From: Nitrososphaerota archaeon
GTDB lineage: Archaea; Thermoproteota; Nitrososphaeria; Nitrososphaerales; UBA213
Assembly: GCA_002713325.1 (NCBI GenBank)
Contig: PAWD01000021.1
Location: 15,535-79,534 of the forward strand
Direction: 5' to 3'
Length of the DNA stretch: 64,000 nt
The notes below the pieces were generated by a model. The model was given only the letters and a program-made list of their open reading frames with translations. It was not told the DNA's origin and ran no database searches. The position numbers and the translations under genes are program-made. Shown here piece by piece: positions 9,806-23,336 of this stretch. Position 1 is the stretch's first letter. Each line of letters opens with the position of its first letter.

Positions 9806-11145
9806 TGAAGAGGTTTTTTACTGTGTTGAGTGAAGAAGATCTCGAAGACTGGAGAAGAACACATTATTCATCACAGATAAAACCAGATTTGAATGATGAC
9901 AACGTTCTTGTTATGGGCTGGGTCTCCAGCATACGTGATCATGGAAATATCACATTTATTATGATTACAGATAAGGATGGAGAGATACAGGTTACTGCGA
10001 AACTTGATGAGTGTGGAAAAATACTTTTTGATAAGATCAGGGAAGTTAAGGAACATTCTAGCATAGGTGTGAAGGGCAAGGTAAGAATGATGCAGAACGC
10101 ACCAAACGGAGCAGAGGTAATTCCTGAAGAGATGAAGATATTTTCCATAGCGAAGAAAGTACCACCTTTTCAGGTGTATAGTAGAACAGTACCAAATATA
10201 GATATAAGATTGGATCTGCGAGCCATTGATCTCCGTAGAAAAGTTCTGCGAGCAGTGTTCAATATTAGACATAACACACTAAACGCGATACGCGAATTTC
10301 TGAATAAAGAGGGATTTATTGAAGTTAACACACCAAAGATAATAGCTACTGCAACAGAAGGTGGTGCAGCTCTCTTCCCGATATTTTACTATGATAGAGA
10401 GGCATTTCTTGTGCAGAGTCCACAGTTGTATAAAGAACAACTTACTATGGCATTTGAACATGTGTTCGAAATAGGACCAATATTTAGGGCAGAACCTTCC
10501 AGAACTATGAGACATTTATCTGAGGCAATATCAATAGACGTAGAAGAGATATTTGTAGACTATAATGATGTTATTAATTTATTGGAAAGAATGGTTGTAT
10601 ATATTATAGAATACGTTATAAAAAATAAATCAGAAGAATTAGAGGTTCTGCAAAATAAGATAGATAAACCAAGTCTTCCATTCCCAAGATATTCATACAA
10701 TGAACTCATTGAGTTGTTAAAGAAAGAGGACGAAAGGATAGAGTGGGGGGATGATTTTTCCACAGATAATCTGAAAAAACTTGGTTCTATAATACAAGGC
10801 TATTATTTCATCACCGACTGGCCATCGATATCAAAACCATTCTATACTAAACCAAAAATCAGCGATGAGAAACTATGTGAGTCATTCGATCTCATGTATG
10901 GAGAATTAGAAATTTCATCCGGTAGTAGCAGAATAAACAGGAAAGACAAACTACTTGAACGTATGAAGAAACAGGGATTGAATACAGAGGCATTCGATTA
11001 CCATCTTAGAGTATTCGATTATGGTGTACCTCCTCATGCAGGATTTGGACTAGGCTTAGAGAGGTTTCTCATGACATTTACAGGCGTAGAAAATATAAGG
11101 GATACAACACTTTATCCTAGAGATAAAGATAGACTAGCACCATAG
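9805..11145 (+). CDS. aspS: Aspartyl-tRNA synthetase, archaeal type (probably non-discriminating)
   Basis: ORF track 9799 (TTG). The ATG at 9805 overlaps the alaX stop (TAATG). Has an N-terminal OB fold (RTHYSSQI...) and class II motifs ([13 protein letters not shown]). Immediately followed by gatCAB. Confidence 0.9.
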
Positions 11146-11151
11146 GGTGGT

Positions 11152-11427
11152 ATGATGGTAAGTAAAGAGGAAGTAAAACACCTAGCATGGTTAGCAAGGA
11201 TAGAACTTGATGATAAAGAACTGGAAGTTTATACAAAACAAGTTGAGCAGATAATAAGTTATTTTGATACATTAGATAAAATATCACTGGAAGATATTCA
11301 TATATCGCAGAGGAGTGTGCCATACTCGAAGTTCAGGGATGATGTACCAAAAGAATCAACTGATAATGTATTGAGTGTTGTAAAGAACAGTAAAGAAAAA
11401 TTCGTTAAAGCACCAAAGATGGCATGA
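11152..11427 (+). CDS. gatC: Asp/Glu-tRNA amidotransferase subunit C
   Basis: 91-aa ORF. The sequence VKHLAWLARIELDDKELE is typical of GatC. Its stop overlaps the gatA start (ATGA). Confidence 0.9.
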   Translation: MMVSKEEVKHLAWLARIELDDKELEVYTKQVEQIISYFDTLDKISLEDIHISQRSVPYSKFRDDVPKESTDNVLSVVKNSKEKFVKAPKMA

Positions 11428-12878
11428 TAACAATGGATCTATTAACTTCTAGCGCAGCAGATATTGTAACACAGATCAAAAAAGGATATGTAAGTACAGA
11501 AGAATATATTGCAAAAATATTTGATCATATAAAAAAGGTTGAAAGTAATGTACATGCATACATATCACTAAACGATTTGGCTATTGAAAGAGCAAGAGAG
11601 GTTGATAGTGCTGTGAAGAGGGGAGAGAAGTTGGGAAAACTTGCTGGTATCGCAATAGCTGTAAAGGATAACATATGTACTAGTAATATGAAAACAACAT
11701 GTGCATCAAAGATACTTGAGCATTATATTCCACCATACAACGCAACTGTTATAGAAATGCTTGAACGTGAAGGCGCAATAATAATTGGGAAAACAAACCT
11801 TGATGAGTTTGCGATGGGTACAACTACAGAATTTAGTAGATTTAAGGAAACTAGGAATCCATGGGATATCGAGAGAGTTCCTGGAGGTTCTTCTGGAGGC
11901 AGTGCAGCATCGTTAGCAGCTGGAGAAACTACACTTGCTCTTGGGTCTGATACTGGTGGTTCTATAAGATGTCCTGCAAGTTTCTGCTCAGTAGTAGGTT
12001 TGAAACCCACTTATGGTTTAGTTAGCAGATTCGGCCTAGTTTCATTTGCAAACAGCTTGGAACTGATCGGACCTATGTGTAGATCTGTTTACGATACAGC
12101 ATTGATGCTGAATTGTATAACAGGAAGAGATTCAATGGATCATACAACACTTGATGTTGATACAAAAGATTATACAGCAACAATAACGCAAGGTGTAAAG
12201 GGTCTGAAGATCGGTTTAGTTAGAGAAATGATCTCTGATGTAGATGAACATGTGTCTAAAACAATACATGATGCTGCAAGTAAATTTGAGAGTCTAGGCG
12301 CTAATCTTAATGAAGTTTCCATTGATTCATTACAATACGCATTAGCATCATATTATACAATAGCAATGGCAGAGGCTAGTAGTAACCTTGCAAGATATGA
12401 TGGTGTACGTTATGGTATAGATATGGGTCCAGAAGGTTTTGAATGGAATTCTTACTATACGAAGGTACGAAGTAACTTTGGTGATGTGGTAAAGAGAAGA
12501 ATAATTATTGGTACATACGTGTTATCATCTGGTTACTACGGAAAATATTACCTCAAGGCGCAGAAGGTACGAACTTTAATCAAGCAAGAATTCGCATCTT
12601 TATTCAAAACATACGATCTATTGATTGCACCAACTATGCCTATTCTACCGTTTAAAATTGGTGAAAAAACTATGGATCCGTTGCATATGTATATGACAGA
12701 TATAGATACTGTTGCTGCTAACCTTATAGGTATACCATCAATTTCTATTCCATGCGCATTTACAGATGGTTTACCCATTGGATTGCAGATAATGGGAGAT
12801 CACTTGAGTGAGGAACTACTAATAAGAGCTGCATATGCATTCGAAGAGATTACCGATGTGAAGAAGGTTATTGTATGA
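11424..12878 (+). CDS. gatA: Asp/Glu-tRNA amidotransferase subunit A (amidase)
   Basis: 484 aa. Amidase signature GGSSGGSAASLAAG...GSDTGGSIRCPA. Confidence 0.92.
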   Translation: MITMDLLTSSAADIVTQIKKGYVSTEEYIAKIFDHIKKVESNVHAYISLNDLAIERAREVDSAVKRGEKLGKLAGIAIAVKDNICTSNMKTTCASKILEHYIPPYNATVIEMLEREGAIIIGKTNLDEFAMGTTTEFSRFKETRNPWDIERVPGGSSGGSAASLAAGETTLALGSDTGGSIRCPASFCSVVGLKPTYGLVSRFGLVSFANSLELIGPMCRSVYDTALMLNCITGRDSMDHTTLDVDTKDYTATITQGVKGLKIGLVREMISDVDEHVSKTIHDAASKFESLGANLNEVSIDSLQYALASYYTIAMAEASSNLARYDGVRYGIDMGPEGFEWNSYYTKVRSNFGDVVKRRIIIGTYVLSSGYYGKYYLKAQKVRTLIKQEFASLFKTYDLLIAPTMPILPFKIGEKTMDPLHMYMTDIDTVAANLIGIPSISIPCAFTDGLPIGLQIMGDHLSEELLIRAAYAFEEITDVKKVIV

Positions 12879-15530: not shown

Positions 15531-15580
15531 CGATCACAAAACCATCTTTGTCCATTACTTAAAAAGATATACAGGGATCT

Positions 15581-16926: not shown

Positions 16927-17157
16927 GTGAAACATATTCTGTTAGGCATATTACCTCTTAAGGTTCTAGTCGGCGTAGGTGCTGCCTTTTTGATAATTTC
17001 TGGTTCTATTGTATTTGGTCTTATAGATGCGAGTATGTTGAATTATACTGGTAATGACCTGCTCACCAGAAAGATTATTTACACTACTGGCGGATTTGGA
17101 TTTGTGGTAATGGTTCTGGCTGGTATGTATTATTTTCAGTACAAGTATAGGTTATAA
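16927..17157 (+). CDS. Small membrane protein (two predicted TM helices)
   Basis: 76-aa ORF with GTG start. Two long hydrophobic stretches. No homology recognised. Confidence 0.4.
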   Translation: MKHILLGILPLKVLVGVGAAFLIISGSIVFGLIDASMLNYTGNDLLTRKIIYTTGGFGFVVMVLAGMYYFQYKYRL

Positions 17158-17193: not shown

Positions 17194-17742
17194 ATGGTAA
17201 AGATATACACTAAGGGCGGAGATAATGGCGATACTTCCTTAATAGGCGGTAAACGTGTTTCAAAATCGAGTGTACGAATAAATGCGTATGGTAATGTTGA
17301 TGAATTGAGCGCTTCTATAGGCATTGTAGCATCATTCATTGATGATAATGAAATTAGGAAATTACTTGAACAAATACAAGAAAAACTATTCATAATAGGT
17401 TCGGATTTGGCTGATCCATTATATCCTGATAATACAAACAATATTCCTAGAGTTACTGATATAATGGTTAAGGAATTGGAGAATATTATTGACAAGTATG
17501 AGCAGGAAGTCGGAGTAATACAATACTTTATTTTACCAGGTGGAAGTAAAGAAGCATCATTTCTACATTTGGCGAGATGCATTGCTAGAAGAGCCGAAAG
17601 AAATTGCGTTGAATTATCAACTAAAGAAAAGATTAATCACGAGATAATCCCCTATATTAATAGACTGTCTGATTTACTTTTCATGTTAGCTAGGGTAGTA
17701 AATAAGCGACTGAACATAGATGATATTGCTTGGCATAACTGA
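17194..17742 (+). CDS. ATP:cob(I)alamin adenosyltransferase, PduO type
   Basis: 182 aa. The N-terminus IYTKGGDNGDTSL.GG.RV.K...R..AYG.VDEL is diagnostic of the PduO/MMAB family. Confidence 0.88.
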   Translation: MVKIYTKGGDNGDTSLIGGKRVSKSSVRINAYGNVDELSASIGIVASFIDDNEIRKLLEQIQEKLFIIGSDLADPLYPDNTNNIPRVTDIMVKELENIIDKYEQEVGVIQYFILPGGSKEASFLHLARCIARRAERNCVELSTKEKINHEIIPYINRLSDLLFMLARVVNKRLNIDDIAWHN

Positions 17743-17982
17743 TCATTCTTTCTGTACACTCTTAACAGTTTGTTCCAATGAATTTCACTTCCTTTTTGAG
17801 TTAGATTATAGCCTTCGTATTTATGAATATAATGGCAGTCCAGAACGATATCAGTATCATGAATATTGTATTGCAATCATCTTTATCACTTGATTCAGCA
17901 AATGAATATTTGTGATATATGTTTACACTAATTTTGTGTAGAACAAAACTGTTAAATTTGCGCTACCTAAAGTAACCGCTGT

Positions 17983-18072
17983 GCCGCCGTAGCTCAGCCT
18001 GGGAGAGCACTCGACCTTTTTGGGGTGATGCTGAAGACCGAGCTGTCGTGTGTTCAAGTCACACCGGCGGCA
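17983..18072 (+). tRNA. tRNA-Phe(GAA) with 16-nt intron after position 32
   Basis: Acceptor GCCGCCG/CGGCGGC, A73. D arm GCTC-AGCCTGGGA-GAGC. T arm GTGTG-TTCAAGT-CACAC. Removing 18016..18031 gives anticodon arm CTCGA-CTGAAGA-CCGAG (anticodon GAA at 18033-18035). No encoded CCA. Confidence 0.85.
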
Positions 18073-18528
18073 TATCTACTAATTGAGACTCATTTCCTGT
18101 AATATTACATACAAAAGAAATACCTAGGCGAGTATTTAACACGGTATTTTAAATGAGTATAAAAGCTCGAAATCACGGAGCGTTATGAATAAAGGATTAA
18201 TCACTTTTGCAGGAATATATTGATTACTTCATAACAAGTAGAACCGAGTAAAGGATTCTGACTATCTAATAATCCCTCAGTAATGACGGAGTAATTATAT
18301 CTATTATTGAATTGTTTGTAAATGTGGAATTTATTATTGATGAAGTTTTATGGACATTTAGATAATGGATATATCCATCTAATCTACCCATTGCTACGTA
18401 TAATGGCGTAATCAAACAAGTATACATAGTAGGTTCAAATTCAATTTTCATGATTAATAGAGGTCAAGAGCGGAAATAATAACAGAAAAGTTATATACGT
18501 CTATTCCATGTTTTCTATCTAGAATATT

Positions 18529-18894
18529 ATGAACAGACTCGTGATTTACAGTTTAGGTGCAGTTCTATTACTTGGAACATTTGCAGGTGCATCTGTCATG
18601 GGCCAAATGTATGGTAGCGGTACTGGTGGTTCTATACAGAAAGCTTCACCAGAACAATTGAAAGAATGTGCTGCATTAGATATACCAGAGTTTTCATGTA
18701 CAGAAAATACTATACTTGCAAAGAGAAGAATAGGAATAGCAGCCCAAGGGGATGCGTATGGTTCTGGTACACCCATGCTTAGTCAAGCATTTGGTGAGAT
18801 GGGCGTTTTAATAGCAGTTCTTGCTGTTATCTTTGGCGCTGTTGCAGTTGTATTCTTTGTCAAGGCCCGAGGAACTAAGAAACAGGTCCAATAA
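18529..18894 (+). CDS. Small exported/membrane-anchored protein next to the amo cluster (candidate AMO-associated subunit)
   Basis: 121 aa. Signal-like N-terminus, duplicated YGSGT motif, one C-terminal TM helix (GVLIAVLAVIFGAVAVVFFV) followed by a basic tail. Confidence 0.6.
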   Translation: MNRLVIYSLGAVLLLGTFAGASVMGQMYGSGTGGSIQKASPEQLKECAALDIPEFSCTENTILAKRRIGIAAQGDAYGSGTPMLSQAFGEMGVLIAVLAVIFGAVAVVFFVKARGTKKQVQ

Positions 18895-19017
18895 TTCTCC
18901 TTTAATTTTTGTTATATTTAGATCATATAAGTATAATCAATGATTTTAGTTATAGTCATTAATAGGTTATAAGAAACACAGAAATGTATATATTCACGCA
19001 TATTCATCAATAGTTTA

Positions 19018-19290
19018 ATGTTTGCGATATTTTCCTTAGTTTCATGGATTGGTGCGTCACTGACTAAGATGACTGGGCAGATAGGTCCTGTGTACGATCC
19101 CCTGTTCTATGATGTCATGGTATACATATTTGGGACAATGCTCTTTGCTGTATTCTTGCTTGCTGTTATAGCATTCTGGATGAGAAAGAAAGGAATTGGT
19201 GTCTCTTCAAAGGAAACATGGGTCAAGGAGCTGGACAAGCACTACGAAAGAGAAGGCACTGGTCTTATCCCAGAAGAATCGCTAAAGTAA
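19018..19290 (+). CDS. Small membrane protein convergent with amoB (candidate AMO-associated subunit)
   Basis: 90 aa. Hydrophobic N-terminus plus TM helix VYIFGTMLFAVFLLAVIAFW, then a charged C-terminal tail. Confidence 0.6.
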   Translation: MFAIFSLVSWIGASLTKMTGQIGPVYDPLFYDVMVYIFGTMLFAVFLLAVIAFWMRKKGIGVSSKETWVKELDKHYEREGTGLIPEESLK

Positions 19291-19293
19291 TAC

Positions 19294-19340
19294 ACCCCTA
19301 ACTTTTTCTATTTTTTCTATTTTACCGTTTTCTATTTTGT
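19294..19340. terminator. C-run plus oligo-T termination zone between the convergent 19018 ORF and amoB
   Basis: CACCCC is followed by three copies of TTTTCTATTTT (19304, 19313, 19328). The opposite strand has CTTTTTTCATTTT just after the amoB stop. Confidence 0.45.
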
Positions 19341-19404
19341 AAGAGTTACAAGATTTTAATTTCCATTAACCTAATACTTAAAATGAAAAAAGTATGTGGC
19401 TTGT

Positions 19405-19962
19405 TTAGATCACTTGCCACGGTTTTGTCGCAAACGATACACCTAGTCCTGCAGCAATGACTATACTTTGATAGATAACACTTCCAGTGGAGACAGGTTT
19501 CACTATTGGTTCACCCTCTACGACCACTGTTTGACCAGCACCAAGACCTGGTCCTATACCTTGAACATTAAGCTGTGTATGTAAGTGGTACACACCTGCT
19601 TCAAGTGCTTTTATCCGCAACGAGTAATCTACTTCACTATTTGCAGAAATATCAAATACGTTACCAGGTGGGTCTCGTGCAAGAAACTCCCATCTATTAC
19701 CAGCGTTGGTAGAGTCACTAAACACAGACAGCCAAGCTCTTGTATCTCTGTTGACCAGACTGATCAACGTTCCTCTAATCTCAATTTCTTCACCAGTTTC
19801 TAATGTCTGTGTAGAGAAAGTTTCATCTGTAACTCTAATGAACCTACTCTGCAACTGTGCTTGTACACCATGACCCCATGCATTTTCTAGTAAAATTGTA
19901 ACACTGCTGAGTACTATTATCGCAAAAAGACTCGATATTAACATTGTTTTGCTCGTCTTCAT
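19405..19962 (-). CDS. amoB: Ammonia monooxygenase subunit B, archaeal type
   Basis: 185 aa. Signal sequence followed by the mature N-terminal HGVQAQLQSRF, one cupredoxin-like domain and one C-terminal TM helix. Recognised as archaeal AmoB. Adjacent to amoC/X/A. Confidence 0.93.
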   Translation of the reverse strand: MKTSKTMLISSLFAIIVLSSVTILLENAWGHGVQAQLQSRFIRVTDETFSTQTLETGEEIEIRGTLISLVNRDTRAWLSVFSDSTNAGNRWEFLARDPPGNVFDISANSEVDYSLRIKALEAGVYHLHTQLNVQGIGPGLGAGQTVVVEGEPIVKPVSTGSVIYQSIVIAAGLGVSFATKPWQVI

Positions 19963-19986
19963 TAACCCATAACGACAATGAACAAA

Positions 19987-19999
19987 GATATATGTTTTA
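19987..19999 (-). promoter_or_regulatory. TATA-like box for amoB
   Basis: The minus-strand sequence TAAAACATATATC is centred ~31 nt upstream of the amoB ATG (19962). Confidence 0.4.
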
Positions 20000-20199
20000 T
20001 CTTTACAAATTGTATCTTGTTTGTGGTTTTACGCATAGAATCACTACTTGTATAACTATAATGTTTATCTTAATTGTTAATCATTACAGCTATAGAATTT
20101 ATAACATAAATACATCATTCTACTTTAAATTTTCTTATCCTAAATAGTAACAACATCAAAATATTACAATATATTATTGAAAATTTCAACTGTAATACT

Positions 20200-20209
20200 A
20201 ATATATTAA
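20200..20209 (+). promoter_or_regulatory. TATA-like box for amoC
   Basis: AATATATTAA is centred ~32 nt upstream of the amoC ATG (20237). Confidence 0.4.
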
Positions 20210-20236
20210 GAAAGACATACTAGAAATTGAATAAAT

Positions 20237-21012: not shown

Positions 21013-21024
21013 AAAATTTAAAAA
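21013..21024 (+). promoter_or_regulatory. TATA-like box for amoX
   Basis: AAAATTTAAAAA is centred ~30 nt upstream of the ATG at 21048. Confidence 0.35.
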
Positions 21025-21047
21025 GGTATTTGCTTCCTAATAGCCAT

Positions 21048-21305
21048 ATGTCCAAAGACTCTCCTAGGGAAGAGATCGAAAGAATGATTGGTAAAAGAGT
21101 AGAAAACATGAAGGGACTCTACATAGTTGGGGCTATATTGTCATGGGTCGCAACAGCTTTTGGTGTATGGGTAGGTTTTACATACTATCCATGGGCTTAC
21201 GCAATGGCTAGCGGAATATTTGCACTCATAGTACTTACAGTCATCATAGTATTCGCATTCATCTTCATATGGAAGACAGCGATGGAAAAACCGGTAAATC
21301 CATAA
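21048..21305 (+). CDS. amoX: AmoX, small membrane protein conserved between amoC and amoA in archaeal amo clusters
   Basis: ORF track 21030 (TTG); first ATG at 21048. Two TM helices (LYIVGAILSWVATAFGVWVGF / IFALIVLTVIIVFAFIFIW). Its position between amoC and amoA matches amoX. Confidence 0.8.
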   Translation: MSKDSPREEIERMIGKRVENMKGLYIVGAILSWVATAFGVWVGFTYYPWAYAMASGIFALIVLTVIIVFAFIFIWKTAMEKPVNP

Positions 21306-21335: not shown

Positions 21336-21360
21336 AGTGGATGAGCCAAAGGAATAAAAT

Positions 21361-21369
21361 TTTATATAA
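21361..21369 (+). promoter_or_regulatory. TATA box for amoA
   Basis: TTTATATAA, preceded by an A-rich stretch, is centred ~30 nt upstream of the amoA ATG (21395). Confidence 0.5.
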
Positions 21370-21394
21370 TGGTCATCATTGAAGTATAACCAAT

Positions 21395-22045
21395 ATGGTT
21401 TGGATGCGACGTTGTGTACATTACCTATTCATAGTAGTGGTTGCAGTAAACTCGACACTGCTGACCATTAATGCTGGTGATTATATATTCTACACAGACT
21501 GGGCTTGGACATCATTTGTAATATTCAATCTTTCACAATCAACTATGTTAGCTGTTGGTGCAATATACTACCTTACATTTACAGGTGTACCAGGTACTGC
21601 TACTTATTACGCGACCATCATGACGATATACACGTGGGTTGCAAAGGGTGCTTGGTTTGGATTAGGCTATCCATATGACTTCGTAGCAACACCTGTATGG
21701 ATACCAAGTGCAATGTTGATGGACCTTGTGTACTGGTCGACTAAGAAGAATAAACATGCAACGATACTGATTGGTGGTGTGCTAGTAGGAATGACTATGC
21801 CATTGTTCAATATGGCTCATTTACTTACGTTAACTGATCCGCTGGAAACCGCTTTCAAATACCCACGGCCTACACTACCTCAGTATATGACACCTGTCGA
21901 GCCACAAGTTGGTAAGTTCTATAACAGTCCGGTAGCACTCGCAGCAGGAATTGGTGCTGTGATAACGGTGCCTATGTCCGCATTAGGTGCAAAGTTAACT
22001 ACGTGGACATATAGATGGGCTGCGGCTTGGAGTAAGTGGGATTAA
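21395..22045 (+). CDS. amoA: Ammonia monooxygenase subunit A, archaeal type
   Basis: 216 aa. The sequence MVWMRRCVHYLFIVVVAVNSTLLTINAGDYIFYTDWAWTSF...FKYPRPTLPQYMTPVEPQVGKFYNSPVA is near-identical in pattern to known archaeal AmoA. Confidence 0.97.
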   Translation: MVWMRRCVHYLFIVVVAVNSTLLTINAGDYIFYTDWAWTSFVIFNLSQSTMLAVGAIYYLTFTGVPGTATYYATIMTIYTWVAKGAWFGLGYPYDFVATPVWIPSAMLMDLVYWSTKKNKHATILIGGVLVGMTMPLFNMAHLLTLTDPLETAFKYPRPTLPQYMTPVEPQVGKFYNSPVALAAGIGAVITVPMSALGAKLTTWTYRWAAAWSKWD

Positions 22046-22408: not shown

Positions 22409-22612
22409 CTAACTCTTTCGAATACAAATTCCGATAAAGTATGCTAGACCAACACCAAGTCCGATCATGAGTGGTACATATGCCTTCAATGATTGAGTGA
22501 TATATACTCCTTCTCCCTTTAATTCTTGAGCGAAAGCCGTAGGGAACATAAATGCTACAACAACTAATCCGATCGCCAAACCCAATAGTAGACTTTTTTG
22601 TAAGCCTTTCAT
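22409..22612 (-). CDS. Small membrane protein convergent with amoA
   Basis: 67 aa. Signal-like N-terminus (LLLGLAIGLVVVAFMFPTAFA) and a C-terminal TM helix. Confidence 0.5.
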   Translation of the reverse strand: MKGLQKSLLLGLAIGLVVVAFMFPTAFAQELKGEGVYITQSLKAYVPLMIGLGVGLAYFIGICIRKS

Positions 22613-22668
22613 TGCATAAGTATCAGAAGAGGTGTAATATAACTATGATGGTTTTGTAGATAATTATA

Positions 22669-22763
22669 AGCCTCGGGCGGGATTCGGGCCCGCGACCTCT
22701 TCCTTACCAAGGAAGCGCTTTAACCATTATGTTATAACTCTAGCCAGGCTGAGCTACCGAGGC
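22669..22763 (-). tRNA. tRNA-Thr(GGU) with 20-nt intron in the 3' strand of the D stem
   Basis: Reverse complement reads GCCTCGG-TA-GCTC-AGCCTGGCTA-GAG[TTATAACATAATGGTTAAAG]C-G-CTTCC-TTGGTAA-GGAAG-AGGTC-GCGGG-CCCGAAT-CCCGC-CCGAGGC-T. The intron (22718..22737) has a 4-bp helix TAAC/GTTA flanked by 3-nt bulges (BHB-like). Confidence 0.8.
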
Positions 22764-23055
22764 ATGATGAACACGCTTCTACGAATTACTTATTAACTTT
22801 TCTAGGTTTAGACTTTTTGTCAGATTTTTTCTTAGTCTACATGTTGATACCACTTACGGTCTTACAACAATTATATCGACCAAATCTTACCATGGAAAAT
22901 TTTGTCTGTATCCTTTATACACTTCGTACTTAAAGAACTAATAGATCTGTTCTCTATTCTCTTTATTCAACACATTACCTACACGATGTAAATATCATAA
23001 GGTTTCTGTAGATGCTAAAAGGTTTAAGTTATGATCTACGAGTTAGTTTATCATC

Positions 23056-23173
23056 GCGGGGGTTGCCGAGCCTGGCCAAAGATACTAGAAAAATTGGAAG
23101 CGCGGGACTTAAGATCTTGAGATGGGTGATCCCGTCTCTTAGGAGTTCGTGGGTTCAAACCCCACCCCCCGCA
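23056..23173 (+). tRNA. tRNA-Leu(UAA), class II, with two introns (D arm and canonical 37/38)
   Basis: GCGGGGG-TT-GCCGAGCCTGGCCAAAG[18 nt, 23082..23099]GCG-CGGGA-CTTAAG[15 nt, 23114..23128]A-TCCCG-long variable arm-GTGGG-TTCAAAC-CCCAC-CCCCCGC-A. Anticodon TAA at 23110-23112. Confidence 0.85.
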
Positions 23174-23336
23174 TTCATGATATCATTTTGTACAGTCCAA
23201 ATTCTTTCCTTATTCGTTACTACGAGTGAAGGCGATAGTGGTAAATGAATTTGATCTTAATCATAATACAGACAGGATAAAACTAAAAAAGTCTGAAGTA
23301 AATCCATGTATATATTTGAAAAAGCCTAGTGTCTAT

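Follow-up and report, generated by a model that had tools for sequence, protein, structure and literature searches.

Genes for AmoZ and AmoY, very probably, in a contiguous ammonia monooxygenase cluster of marine Candidatus Nitrosomirales, with a third small gene paired to amoA

Archaeal ammonia monooxygenase (AMO) comprises more than AmoA, AmoB and AmoC: in N. viennensis and N. cavascurensis these three co-migrate with AmoX, AmoY and AmoZ and are cross-linked to them (PMC10030591). A 64,000-nucleotide stretch of contig PAWD01000021.1 (assembly GCA_002713325.1, forward strand, positions 15,535 to 79,534) from a Nitrososphaerota archaeon of the lineage UBA213, here called the window, carries amoA, amoB and amoC together with three small open reading frames (ORFs) that have features of membrane proteins. 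Which of these encode AMO subunits? An earlier sequence-only reading of the locus had suggested that one or two of the three might. Judged by homology exactly two are of this type: the 121-residue product of ORF 18529-18894 is AmoZ and the 90-residue product of ORF 19018-19290 is AmoY. The window thus very probably holds the complete, contiguous six-gene AMO cluster of a marine Ca. Nitrosomirales archaeon, while the third ORF (orf67) represents a different family.

All three small ORFs are found in the ORF list at the coordinates first given for them: 18529-18894 and 19018-19290 on the plus strand and 22409-22612 on the minus strand. The gene order is amoZ-amoY (plus), amoB (minus) and amoC-amoX-amoA (plus). 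The core genes amoA, amoB and amoC were identified by Pfam and NCBIfam.

18529-18894, plus strand: amoZ (121 amino acids), by homology to WP_015019252.1
19018-19290, plus strand: amoY (90 amino acids), by homology to the gene beside N. gargensis amoZ
19291-19404: spacer between the convergent amoY and amoB, 114 bp between the stops, from the sequence
19405-19962, minus strand: amoB (185 amino acids; a single cupredoxin domain and a C-terminal transmembrane (TM) helix), Pfam PF04744
20237-20800, plus strand: amoC (187 amino acids), Pfam PF04896, E 7.8e-15
21048-21305, plus strand: amoX (85 amino acids from the ATG; two TM helices), between amoC and amoA
21395-22045, plus strand: amoA (216 amino acids), Pfam PF12942, E 8e-107
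22409-22612, minus strand: orf67 (67 amino acids), convergent with amoA

AmoB matches the archaeal AmoB structure 4O65 with an E-value of 1.4e-43. A fourth small gene, amoX, went unmentioned in the sequence-only reading; its product is 73% identical to that of the gene at the NCAV_0491 (AmoX) position of Nitrosocaldus loci. The same reading had placed both ORFs next to amoB tail-to-tail with it. This arrangement applies to amoY, whereas amoZ precedes amoY in a tandem arrangement on one strand. The tail-to-tail position of orf67 and amoA is correct, the two genes converging with about 363 bp between their stops.

The first ORF is assigned as AmoZ through direct homology to a protein given this name in the defining paper. 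In a pairwise BLASTP comparison ORF121 is 56% identical to WP_015019252.1 (P0292; E 2e-28), and a homology search returned 52 relatives of 113-186 residues from Nitrososphaeria, the cluster represented by P0049 containing WP_015019252.1 (Ngar_c17820). Accessions of N. maritimus and N. viennensis were also looked for among the cluster members, where only this N. gargensis accession came up. Hodgskiss et al. 2023 (PMC10030591) give it as the AmoZ of Ca. N. gargensis (Fig. S10C). The same paper describes N. viennensis AmoZ as having a conserved Glu48, a Cys49-Cys59 disulfide pair, Arg68 and Arg69, an extended loop and a C-terminal TM helix. The corresponding residues E46, C47, C57, R66 and R67 are present in the window protein with identical spacing, and C47, C57, K65, R67 and G78-S-G-T81 are invariant in an alignment of 37 AmoZ homologues.

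The hydropathy profile bears out the architecture first read from the translation, with a hydrophobic N-terminus (residues 5-23) and a strong TM segment (93-111), and the YGSGT motif does occur twice (residues 28-32 and 77-81). The protein can be divided into a signal peptide (about 1-25), a disordered Gly/Ser/Thr-rich stretch, two short ectodomain helices, a loop, the TM helix and a basic C-terminal tail (KARGTKKQVQ). The Cys47-Cys57 pair belongs to the two-helix ectodomain and may form a disulfide. An AlphaFold2 (AF2) model built on the alignment of homologues places helices at residues 4-24 for the signal, at 41-50 and 59-73 for the ectodomain and at 88-115 for the TM segment, and has a low predicted local distance difference test score (pLDDT) at residues 17-36 and 74-84; with modest confidence the model reproduces the published AmoZ architecture. 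The median dN/dS of amoZ among Nitrosomirales loci is 0.19, indicating purifying selection.

Compared with the known family members (NVIE_004550, Nmar_1507, NCAV_0486), the window AmoZ shares the signal peptide, the two-helix ectodomain with a Cys pair 10 residues apart, the Glu, the Arg-Arg, the GSGT loop and the TM helix. It is 47% identical to the gene at the AmoZ position in Nitrosocaldus, and its size (121 residues, 12.5 kDa) is close to that of a known AmoZ (123 residues, 12.8 kDa). As in known loci, amoZ lies directly upstream of amoY on the same strand, here at a distance of 124 bp. The Cys pair is kept despite the marine lineage, whereas PMC10030591 reports it only for Nitrososphaera and Nitrosocaldaceae.

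The second ORF is assigned as AmoY because it is homologous to the gene that adjoins N. gargensis amoZ, which is the position given for amoY in Table S16 of PMC10030591. There N. gargensis amoY and amoZ are the adjacent genes NGAR_RS08330 and NGAR_RS08325. Contig L081 encodes the exact N. gargensis AmoZ sequence, and ORF90 is 68% identical (E 1e-38) to the 80-residue product of the gene directly downstream of it. The L081 context of rps15, amoZ, amoY and a glycosyltransferase gene mirrors N. viennensis NVIE_004560, 004550, 004540 and 004520. ORF90 (90 residues, 10.25 kDa) found 137 relatives with the near-invariant core QIGPxYDPLFYDVMVYIFGTMLFAVFLL. Matches by length and mass to NVIE_004540/004550 and NCAV_0486/0488 in the proteomics table were not relied on, as protein P0217 agrees in mass (9.557 kDa) but has 83 residues against 82.

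Hydropathy places one TM segment at about 33-51 followed by a charged tail, as the sequence-only reading had it. The parts of the protein are an N-terminal helix, the motif QIGPxYDPLFYDVMVYIFG leading into the single TM helix, then RKKG and finally a charged helix in the cytoplasm, the charged tail reading KETWVKELDKHYEREGTGLIPEESLK. In the AF2 model helices span 2-20, 28-58 (TM, pLDDT up to 94) and 63-79 (cytoplasmic). With a median dN/dS of 0.09 among Nitrosomirales loci the gene is under purifying selection. The known AmoY proteins (NVIE_004540, Nmar_1506, NCAV_0488; 82-89 residues) have the motif, the TM helix and the charged cytoplasmic helix in common with it, and the identity to Nitrosocaldus AmoY is 69%. 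The C-terminus distinguishes the lineages: it ends in ...PEESLK in the window, in other Nitrosomirales and in Nitrosocaldus-type proteins, in ...PDEKHHW in Nitrososphaeraceae and in ...PDNGKYW in Nitrosopumilaceae.

Could ORF121 and ORF90 instead be chance ORFs or generic small membrane proteins that happen to lie near amoB? Library searches could be read in this way, as the three ORFs, compared with Pfam, NCBIfam and the PDB sequences, yielded only sub-threshold matches to TM segments (Syndecan, FixQ; E about 0.01) or to BamE (E 0.06-0.3). The BamE match to ORF121 spans 30 residues at a non-significant E-value. The strong and specific homology to published AmoZ and AmoY, the hundreds of homologues in ammonia-oxidizing archaea (AOA), the dN/dS values of 0.09-0.19 and the conserved synteny of the pair described below refute the idea that these are non-AMO proteins, and we consider it highly improbable.

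The distribution of the pair was followed in a GTDB scan with one genome per species, in which 570 loci encode an AmoY relative; the best 80 of the 570 were inspected, and locus comparisons used the window and 81 fetched loci (82 in all). In 79 of the 82, amoY is closely preceded on its own strand by a match to the AmoZ profile. Profiling of this adjacency across AOA, which the sequence-only reading had proposed as a check, shows the pair kept beside amo genes and not the lack of conservation there that would speak against the assignment. Within the 64-kb window there is no second copy of AmoY or AmoZ. The named homologues of both proteins are all from Nitrososphaeria or Thaumarchaeota, as are 79 of the best 80 GTDB loci by title; the remaining one (L067) is labelled 'bacterium' and carries AmoZ and AmoY.

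The closest loci (L001-L006, with Ca. Nitrosomirales DSS1 among them) and those of Nitrosocaldus (L050, L079) share the complete order Z-Y-B(reverse)-C-X-A, which equals NCAV_0486 (Z), 0488 (Y), 0489 (B), 0490 (C), 0491 (X) and 0492 (A). The cluster of N. islandicus and N. cavascurensis (amoA-X-C-B-Y-Z) is identical in order and orientations, including the convergent amoY and amoB, and it likewise has an orf67-family gene convergent on amoA. It differs from the window in that Nitrosocaldus is a thermophile and the window organism a marine member of Nitrosomirales, in its AmoB (209 residues, against 185 in the window, which is free of the Nitrosocaldus-specific insertion) and in its outer flanks, where it has both rps15 beside amoZ and a TM-anchored protein of about 125 residues beside orf67, both missing from these positions in the window. 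Nitrosopumilaceae have one or two genes between amoYZ and amoABCX, and the genes of Nitrososphaeraceae are dispersed, whereas those of the window are contiguous: amoY adjoins amoB directly (114 bp), free of intervening genes like Nmar_1504 or Nmar_1505. Among the genomes tabulated in the accessible part of PMC10030591, only that of Nitrosocaldus islandicus is scored 'fully syntenic'. The amoY-amoB gap is only 114-150 bp in the window and L002-L006; L001, the closest GTDB relative by AmoY (76% identity), has an insert of about 1.1 kb at this point (10270-11386).

As to the source, the window is 99.99% identical to the metagenome-assembled genome (MAG) UBA213 (GCA_002494485.1) and, apart from one duplication, 100% identical to a TARA Oceans scaffold (L082). 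UBA213 is a marine MAG from Ca. Nitrosomirales, an order that is sister to Nitrosocaldales and encodes AMOX, AMOY and AMOZ (PMC10811736); the presence of AmoY and AmoZ is therefore already known at the level of the lineage. The duplication in L082 (about 11167-11821, equivalent to window 19119-19446) is a direct repeat of 328 bp over the 3' end of amoY, the spacer and the 3' end of amoB and yields an extra, partial AmoY gene call of 50 residues. It is absent from the window and UBA213 and is probably an assembly artefact.

Several points weigh against the assignment of AmoZ and AmoY and of their role. Both AF2 models are of modest confidence (pLDDT 60 for AmoZ and 69 for AmoY), and AmoZ is divergent, its nearest relative beyond its own species being only 57% identical. 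The AmoY link runs through adjacency on a contig with the exact N. gargensis AmoZ and not through an accession-level match to WP_015019253.1. Pfam and NCBIfam hold no model for AmoX, AmoY or AmoZ, hence no curated threshold could be applied, and the PDB set searched, which lacks the archaeal AMO cryo-electron microscopy (cryo-EM) entries 9XJ2 and 9XGS, contains no solved structure of the three proteins. Finally, N. viennensis, N. cavascurensis and N. maritimus are the species from which the function would be carried over by homology.

What would the two proteins do? By analogy with their counterparts they are to be seen as single-pass accessory subunits of archaeal AMO. A 2026 preprint on N. 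maritimus AMO (cryo-EM at 2.9 Å; 10.64898/2026.08.31.748207) names AmoY AmoF and AmoZ AmoG and describes AmoF-AmoG as a clamp-like heterodimer between adjacent protomers of the AMO trimer, with charged termini that make electrostatic contacts on both membrane faces. The TM helix of AmoG is said there to replace a helix that is present in bacterial AmoB and absent from archaeal AmoB. In AlphaFold models (PMC10030591 and 10.64898/2026.08.31.748207) the small, disulfide-stapled AmoZ ectodomain leans on the AmoB cupredoxin domain. The basic tail of the window AmoZ and the charged tail of its AmoY fit such a clamp with electrostatic contacts. On this model AmoZ would be exported via a cleaved signal peptide, AmoY would insert so that its N-terminus faces outward and its charged C-terminal helix lies in the cytoplasm, and the two would do the same job as in N. 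maritimus, N. viennensis and N. cavascurensis.

Each amo gene may have a TATA-box promoter of its own and give rise to a leaderless or short-leader mRNA. By pattern recognition only, a TATA-like box lies 22-43 nucleotides before each start, which suggests separate promoters and mRNAs of this kind:

18486-18498, plus strand: TATA-like box of amoZ, -43 to -31 from the start
18982-18995, plus strand: TATA-like box of amoY
19986-19998, minus strand: TATA-like box of amoB
20197-20210, plus strand: TATA-like box of amoC
21013-21026, plus strand: TATA-like box of amoX, -35 to -22 from the ATG
21356-21371, plus strand: TATA-like box of amoA
22634-22651, minus strand: promoter of orf67 resembling a B recognition element (BRE) and TATA box, CCATCATAGTTATATTAC, -39 to -22 from the ATG

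In the ORF list amoX begins at TTG 21030 (91 residues), and public gene calls use the 85-residue form; together with the position of the TATA-like box these calls indicate ATG 21048 as the real start. T-rich tracts, which the sequence-only reading had seen after the two small ORFs on the amoB side and after the amo genes alike, follow the stops of amoZ, amoY, amoB, amoX and amoA, but the sequence downstream of amoC is not T-rich; downstream of orf67 it is. The C-run noted after 19290 is present. The amoY-amoB spacer has oligo-T runs on both strands, with the C-run after amoY, and these runs are probably archaeal oligo-T terminators.

We then turn to orf67, which the sequence-only reading had likewise considered as a possible subunit gene. 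Its hydropathy profile agrees with the predicted signal-like N-terminus (hydrophobic at 8-26) and TM helix (46-64). It is not AmoX, AmoY or AmoZ: it has no similarity to them and no cross-match with them within the window, where the AmoX gene is already found between amoC and amoA. Searched against every ORF of the window and the 81 loci, its profile matches only its own family. This family comprises 13 GTDB-derived sequences, from the window and 12 loci (L001-L006, L043, L050, L053, L055, L073, L079), and includes a Nitrosocaldus ORF of 66 residues, MMKNYSMLAVLAILALAAVAAVMPSAYAQTWGRPDSMIIAGLPLIVGLGTGIVYFIVISARRSKK. The relatives are 36-67% identical and the pairwise dN/dS is about 0.1-0.25, similar to AmoZ (median 0.24 among Nitrosomirales loci), and by these measures orf67 is a real gene under purifying selection. 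Its promoter spacing implies a leaderless or very short-leader mRNA, and the motif CCATyATAGTTATATT is found about -45 to -20 upstream of the start, near base for base, in 11 of 12 sequences of Nitrosomirales and Nitrosocaldus type; the exception is L003, where the start codon is uncertain.

The family alignment consists of a basic N-terminus, a hydrophobic core ending P-[ST]-A-[FY]-A/Q (the slash marking predicted cleavage; P-T-A-F-A/Q is the probable signal-peptide end of orf67 itself), a segment of 10-17 residues, the TM helix and an RRSR-type tail. Cleavage at AFA/Q would most likely leave a type-I single-pass mature peptide of about 39 residues with a short ectodomain. Within the TM helix P47, G51, L52, G53 and G55 (P-x3-G-L-G-x-G) are invariant, and this face probably packs against another membrane protein. 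The single most likely partner would be AMO.

All carriers of the family are of the Nitrosocaldales/Nitrosomirales type or related uncultured MAGs. In the window and all 12 GTDB loci orf67 is convergent on amoA with 100-460 bp between the stops, and a metagenome scan added seven loci, with amoA adjacent in all four that reach far enough. Its outer neighbours vary, being tRNAs and a 2-hydroxyacid dehydrogenase gene in the window and the TM-anchored protein of about 125 residues in Nitrosocaldus and terrestrial Nitrosomirales. It also stays beside amoA in L043, L055, L073 and L090, in which amoC is no longer part of the cluster and amoA-X-B runs inverted with respect to Z-Y. The conserved pairing is suggestive of a functional tie to AMO. 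Elsewhere the family is rare: it is missing from all 20 loci of Nitrososphaeraceae and Nitrosopumilaceae reaching 700 bp or more beyond amoA, a profile search of 1.84 billion representative proteins matched only 3 clusters, and it is not conserved across all AOA as Hodgskiss et al. required of a subunit. We found no mention of the family or of NCAV_0493 in the literature searched.

We lean slightly towards orf67 being a small exported or membrane peptide unrelated to AMO, whose place next to amoA was inherited from the ancestor of Nitrosocaldales and Nitrosomirales. The two orders are sister lineages, and so one ancestral event suffices to explain the adjacency. The convergent orientation rules out co-transcription with amoA, most AOA lack the family, and other ancestral neighbours are functionally unconnected. 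The clearest example is rps15, which lies divergently beside amoZ in Nitrosocaldus (L050 8800-9243) and Nitrososphaera (L081 5419-5868), an adjacency that looks ancestral; in the window its place is taken by a cobalamin adenosyltransferase gene and a tRNA-Gln. The conservation of this adjacency calls for caution in reading function from gene neighbourhood. Less easily reconciled with mere inheritance, both outer flanks have been reshuffled in the window lineage (rps15 and the neighbour of about 125 residues are gone), yet orf67 is within 100-460 bp of amoA everywhere and stays with it even in the four rearranged loci.

That orf67 encodes an additional accessory subunit of AMO, or an assembly factor for it, peculiar to Nitrosocaldales and Nitrosomirales seems to us unlikely, although a number of observations point in this direction. 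It would be a supernumerary single TM helix on AmoA, AmoC or AmoB, similar to the marine-specific AmoE of N. maritimus. The adjacency to amoA, found in every informative locus, survives three cluster arrangements and altered outer flanks; the gene is under purifying selection, its BRE/TATA motif is conserved almost base for base across lineages, and the invariant helix face is typical for helix packing. According to the preprint (10.64898/2026.08.31.748207) archaeal AMO has lineage-specific single-TM subunits and a chain, AmoH, still without identity. The original screen (PMC10030591) took only families conserved in all AOA and would therefore have missed orf67. On the other hand, the family is missing from the Nitrososphaeraceae and Nitrosopumilaceae loci and confined to three clusters library-wide, and rps15, obviously no AMO subunit, illustrates how inherited adjacency can mislead. 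NCAV_0493 and NCAV_0494 do not occur in the accessible part of the N. cavascurensis blue native polyacrylamide gel electrophoresis (BN-PAGE) table, which says little, as the peptide is trypsin-unfriendly. An identity with AmoH was considered and rejected because the preprint describes that chain as loop-rich and cytoplasmic, unlike orf67.

We regard it as equally doubtful that orf67 is a seventh AMO-associated single-helix subunit or assembly factor and as such the deep-branching counterpart of marine AmoE, with which it was compared by description. NmAmoE of N. maritimus is, like orf67, small, lineage-restricted and single-TM and is encoded in or beside the amo cluster (10.64898/2026.08.31.748207). 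It has a C-terminal domain that orf67 lacks, its gene is described there as part of the amo cluster whereas orf67 lies beyond amoA, and its physical association with AMO has been shown while that of orf67 is hypothetical. The orf67 profile has no match in the Nitrosopumilaceae loci searched, none of which is from N. maritimus.

The AmoY/AmoZ result confirms a correct annotation and is not new biology. In all database records examined the two genes are labelled 'hypothetical protein', and a sequence-level link to the published subunits aids their annotation. The mesophilic marine UBA213-type Nitrosomirales keep the fully contiguous six-gene cluster, which the defining study, in its accessible part, found only in thermophilic Nitrosocaldus, and they also keep the Cys-pair AmoZ; this combination in a mesophilic marine lineage is not explicitly noted in the literature searched. 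The same literature does not contain the orf67 family with its invariable amoA pairing. With its highly conserved promoter orf67 accompanies amoA in every Nitrosocaldales/Nitrosomirales-type locus reaching that far. Since archaeal AMO has lineage-specific accessory chains, one of them without identity, it is a cheap and testable candidate in the existing N. cavascurensis complexome data. If orf67 were a subunit, it would be a deep-branching counterpart of the lineage-specific accessory helices, missed through the requirement for conservation in all AOA.

The protein of about 125 residues mentioned above has an N-terminal TM anchor, a C-terminus reading ...RSMPKAPGMIGGM[RG] and no Pfam family. 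It is encoded divergently beside orf67 in Nitrosocaldus and terrestrial Nitrosomirales (L050 13503-13877, L079 13601-14014, L053 4709-5122, L002 13859-14242, L003 14061-14432; also L089-L091). In many Nitrososphaeraceae its gene is less than 10 kb away from amoZ/amoY, with about 6.4 kb to amoY for example in L025 (16379-16738), and it is absent from the 64-kb window. Its sequence and position make it one more small membrane protein of AOA with a link to amo genes.

On the amoZ side of the cluster an ORF of 76 residues with two TM helices (16927-17157, plus strand) lies upstream of the cob(I)alamin adenosyltransferase gene (17194-17742). Its conservation is limited to the nearest relatives (L004 with 68%, and same-species contigs), and nothing was seen that ties it to amo genes. 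Between the adenosyltransferase gene and amoZ is a tRNA-Gln(UUG) with an intron (17983-18072, plus strand; 46.4 bits), and ORF 17923-18057 on the minus strand, which overlaps it, is spurious.

On the orf67 side a tRNA (22669-22763, minus strand) lies just upstream of orf67 on the same strand, with an anticodon loop reading GGU (Thr). Rfam aligns only model positions 8-63 (31.3 bits) and ARAGORN gives an odd fold of 95 nucleotides with no anticodon assigned; the tRNA is likely to contain a non-canonical intron or to have an atypical acceptor arm. It is not at this position in the other Nitrosomirales loci compared. A probable tRNA-Ser(UGA) with a 27-nucleotide intron follows at 23056-23173 (plus strand). 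It was missed by ARAGORN defaults and the Rfam gathering threshold, and found by ARAGORN once introns were permitted and the score relaxed. Its T-arm is what the Rfam fragments of tmRNA and 'Plastid-ycf2' match, and the presence of this tRNA makes the listed ORF 23012-23248 (plus strand) spurious.

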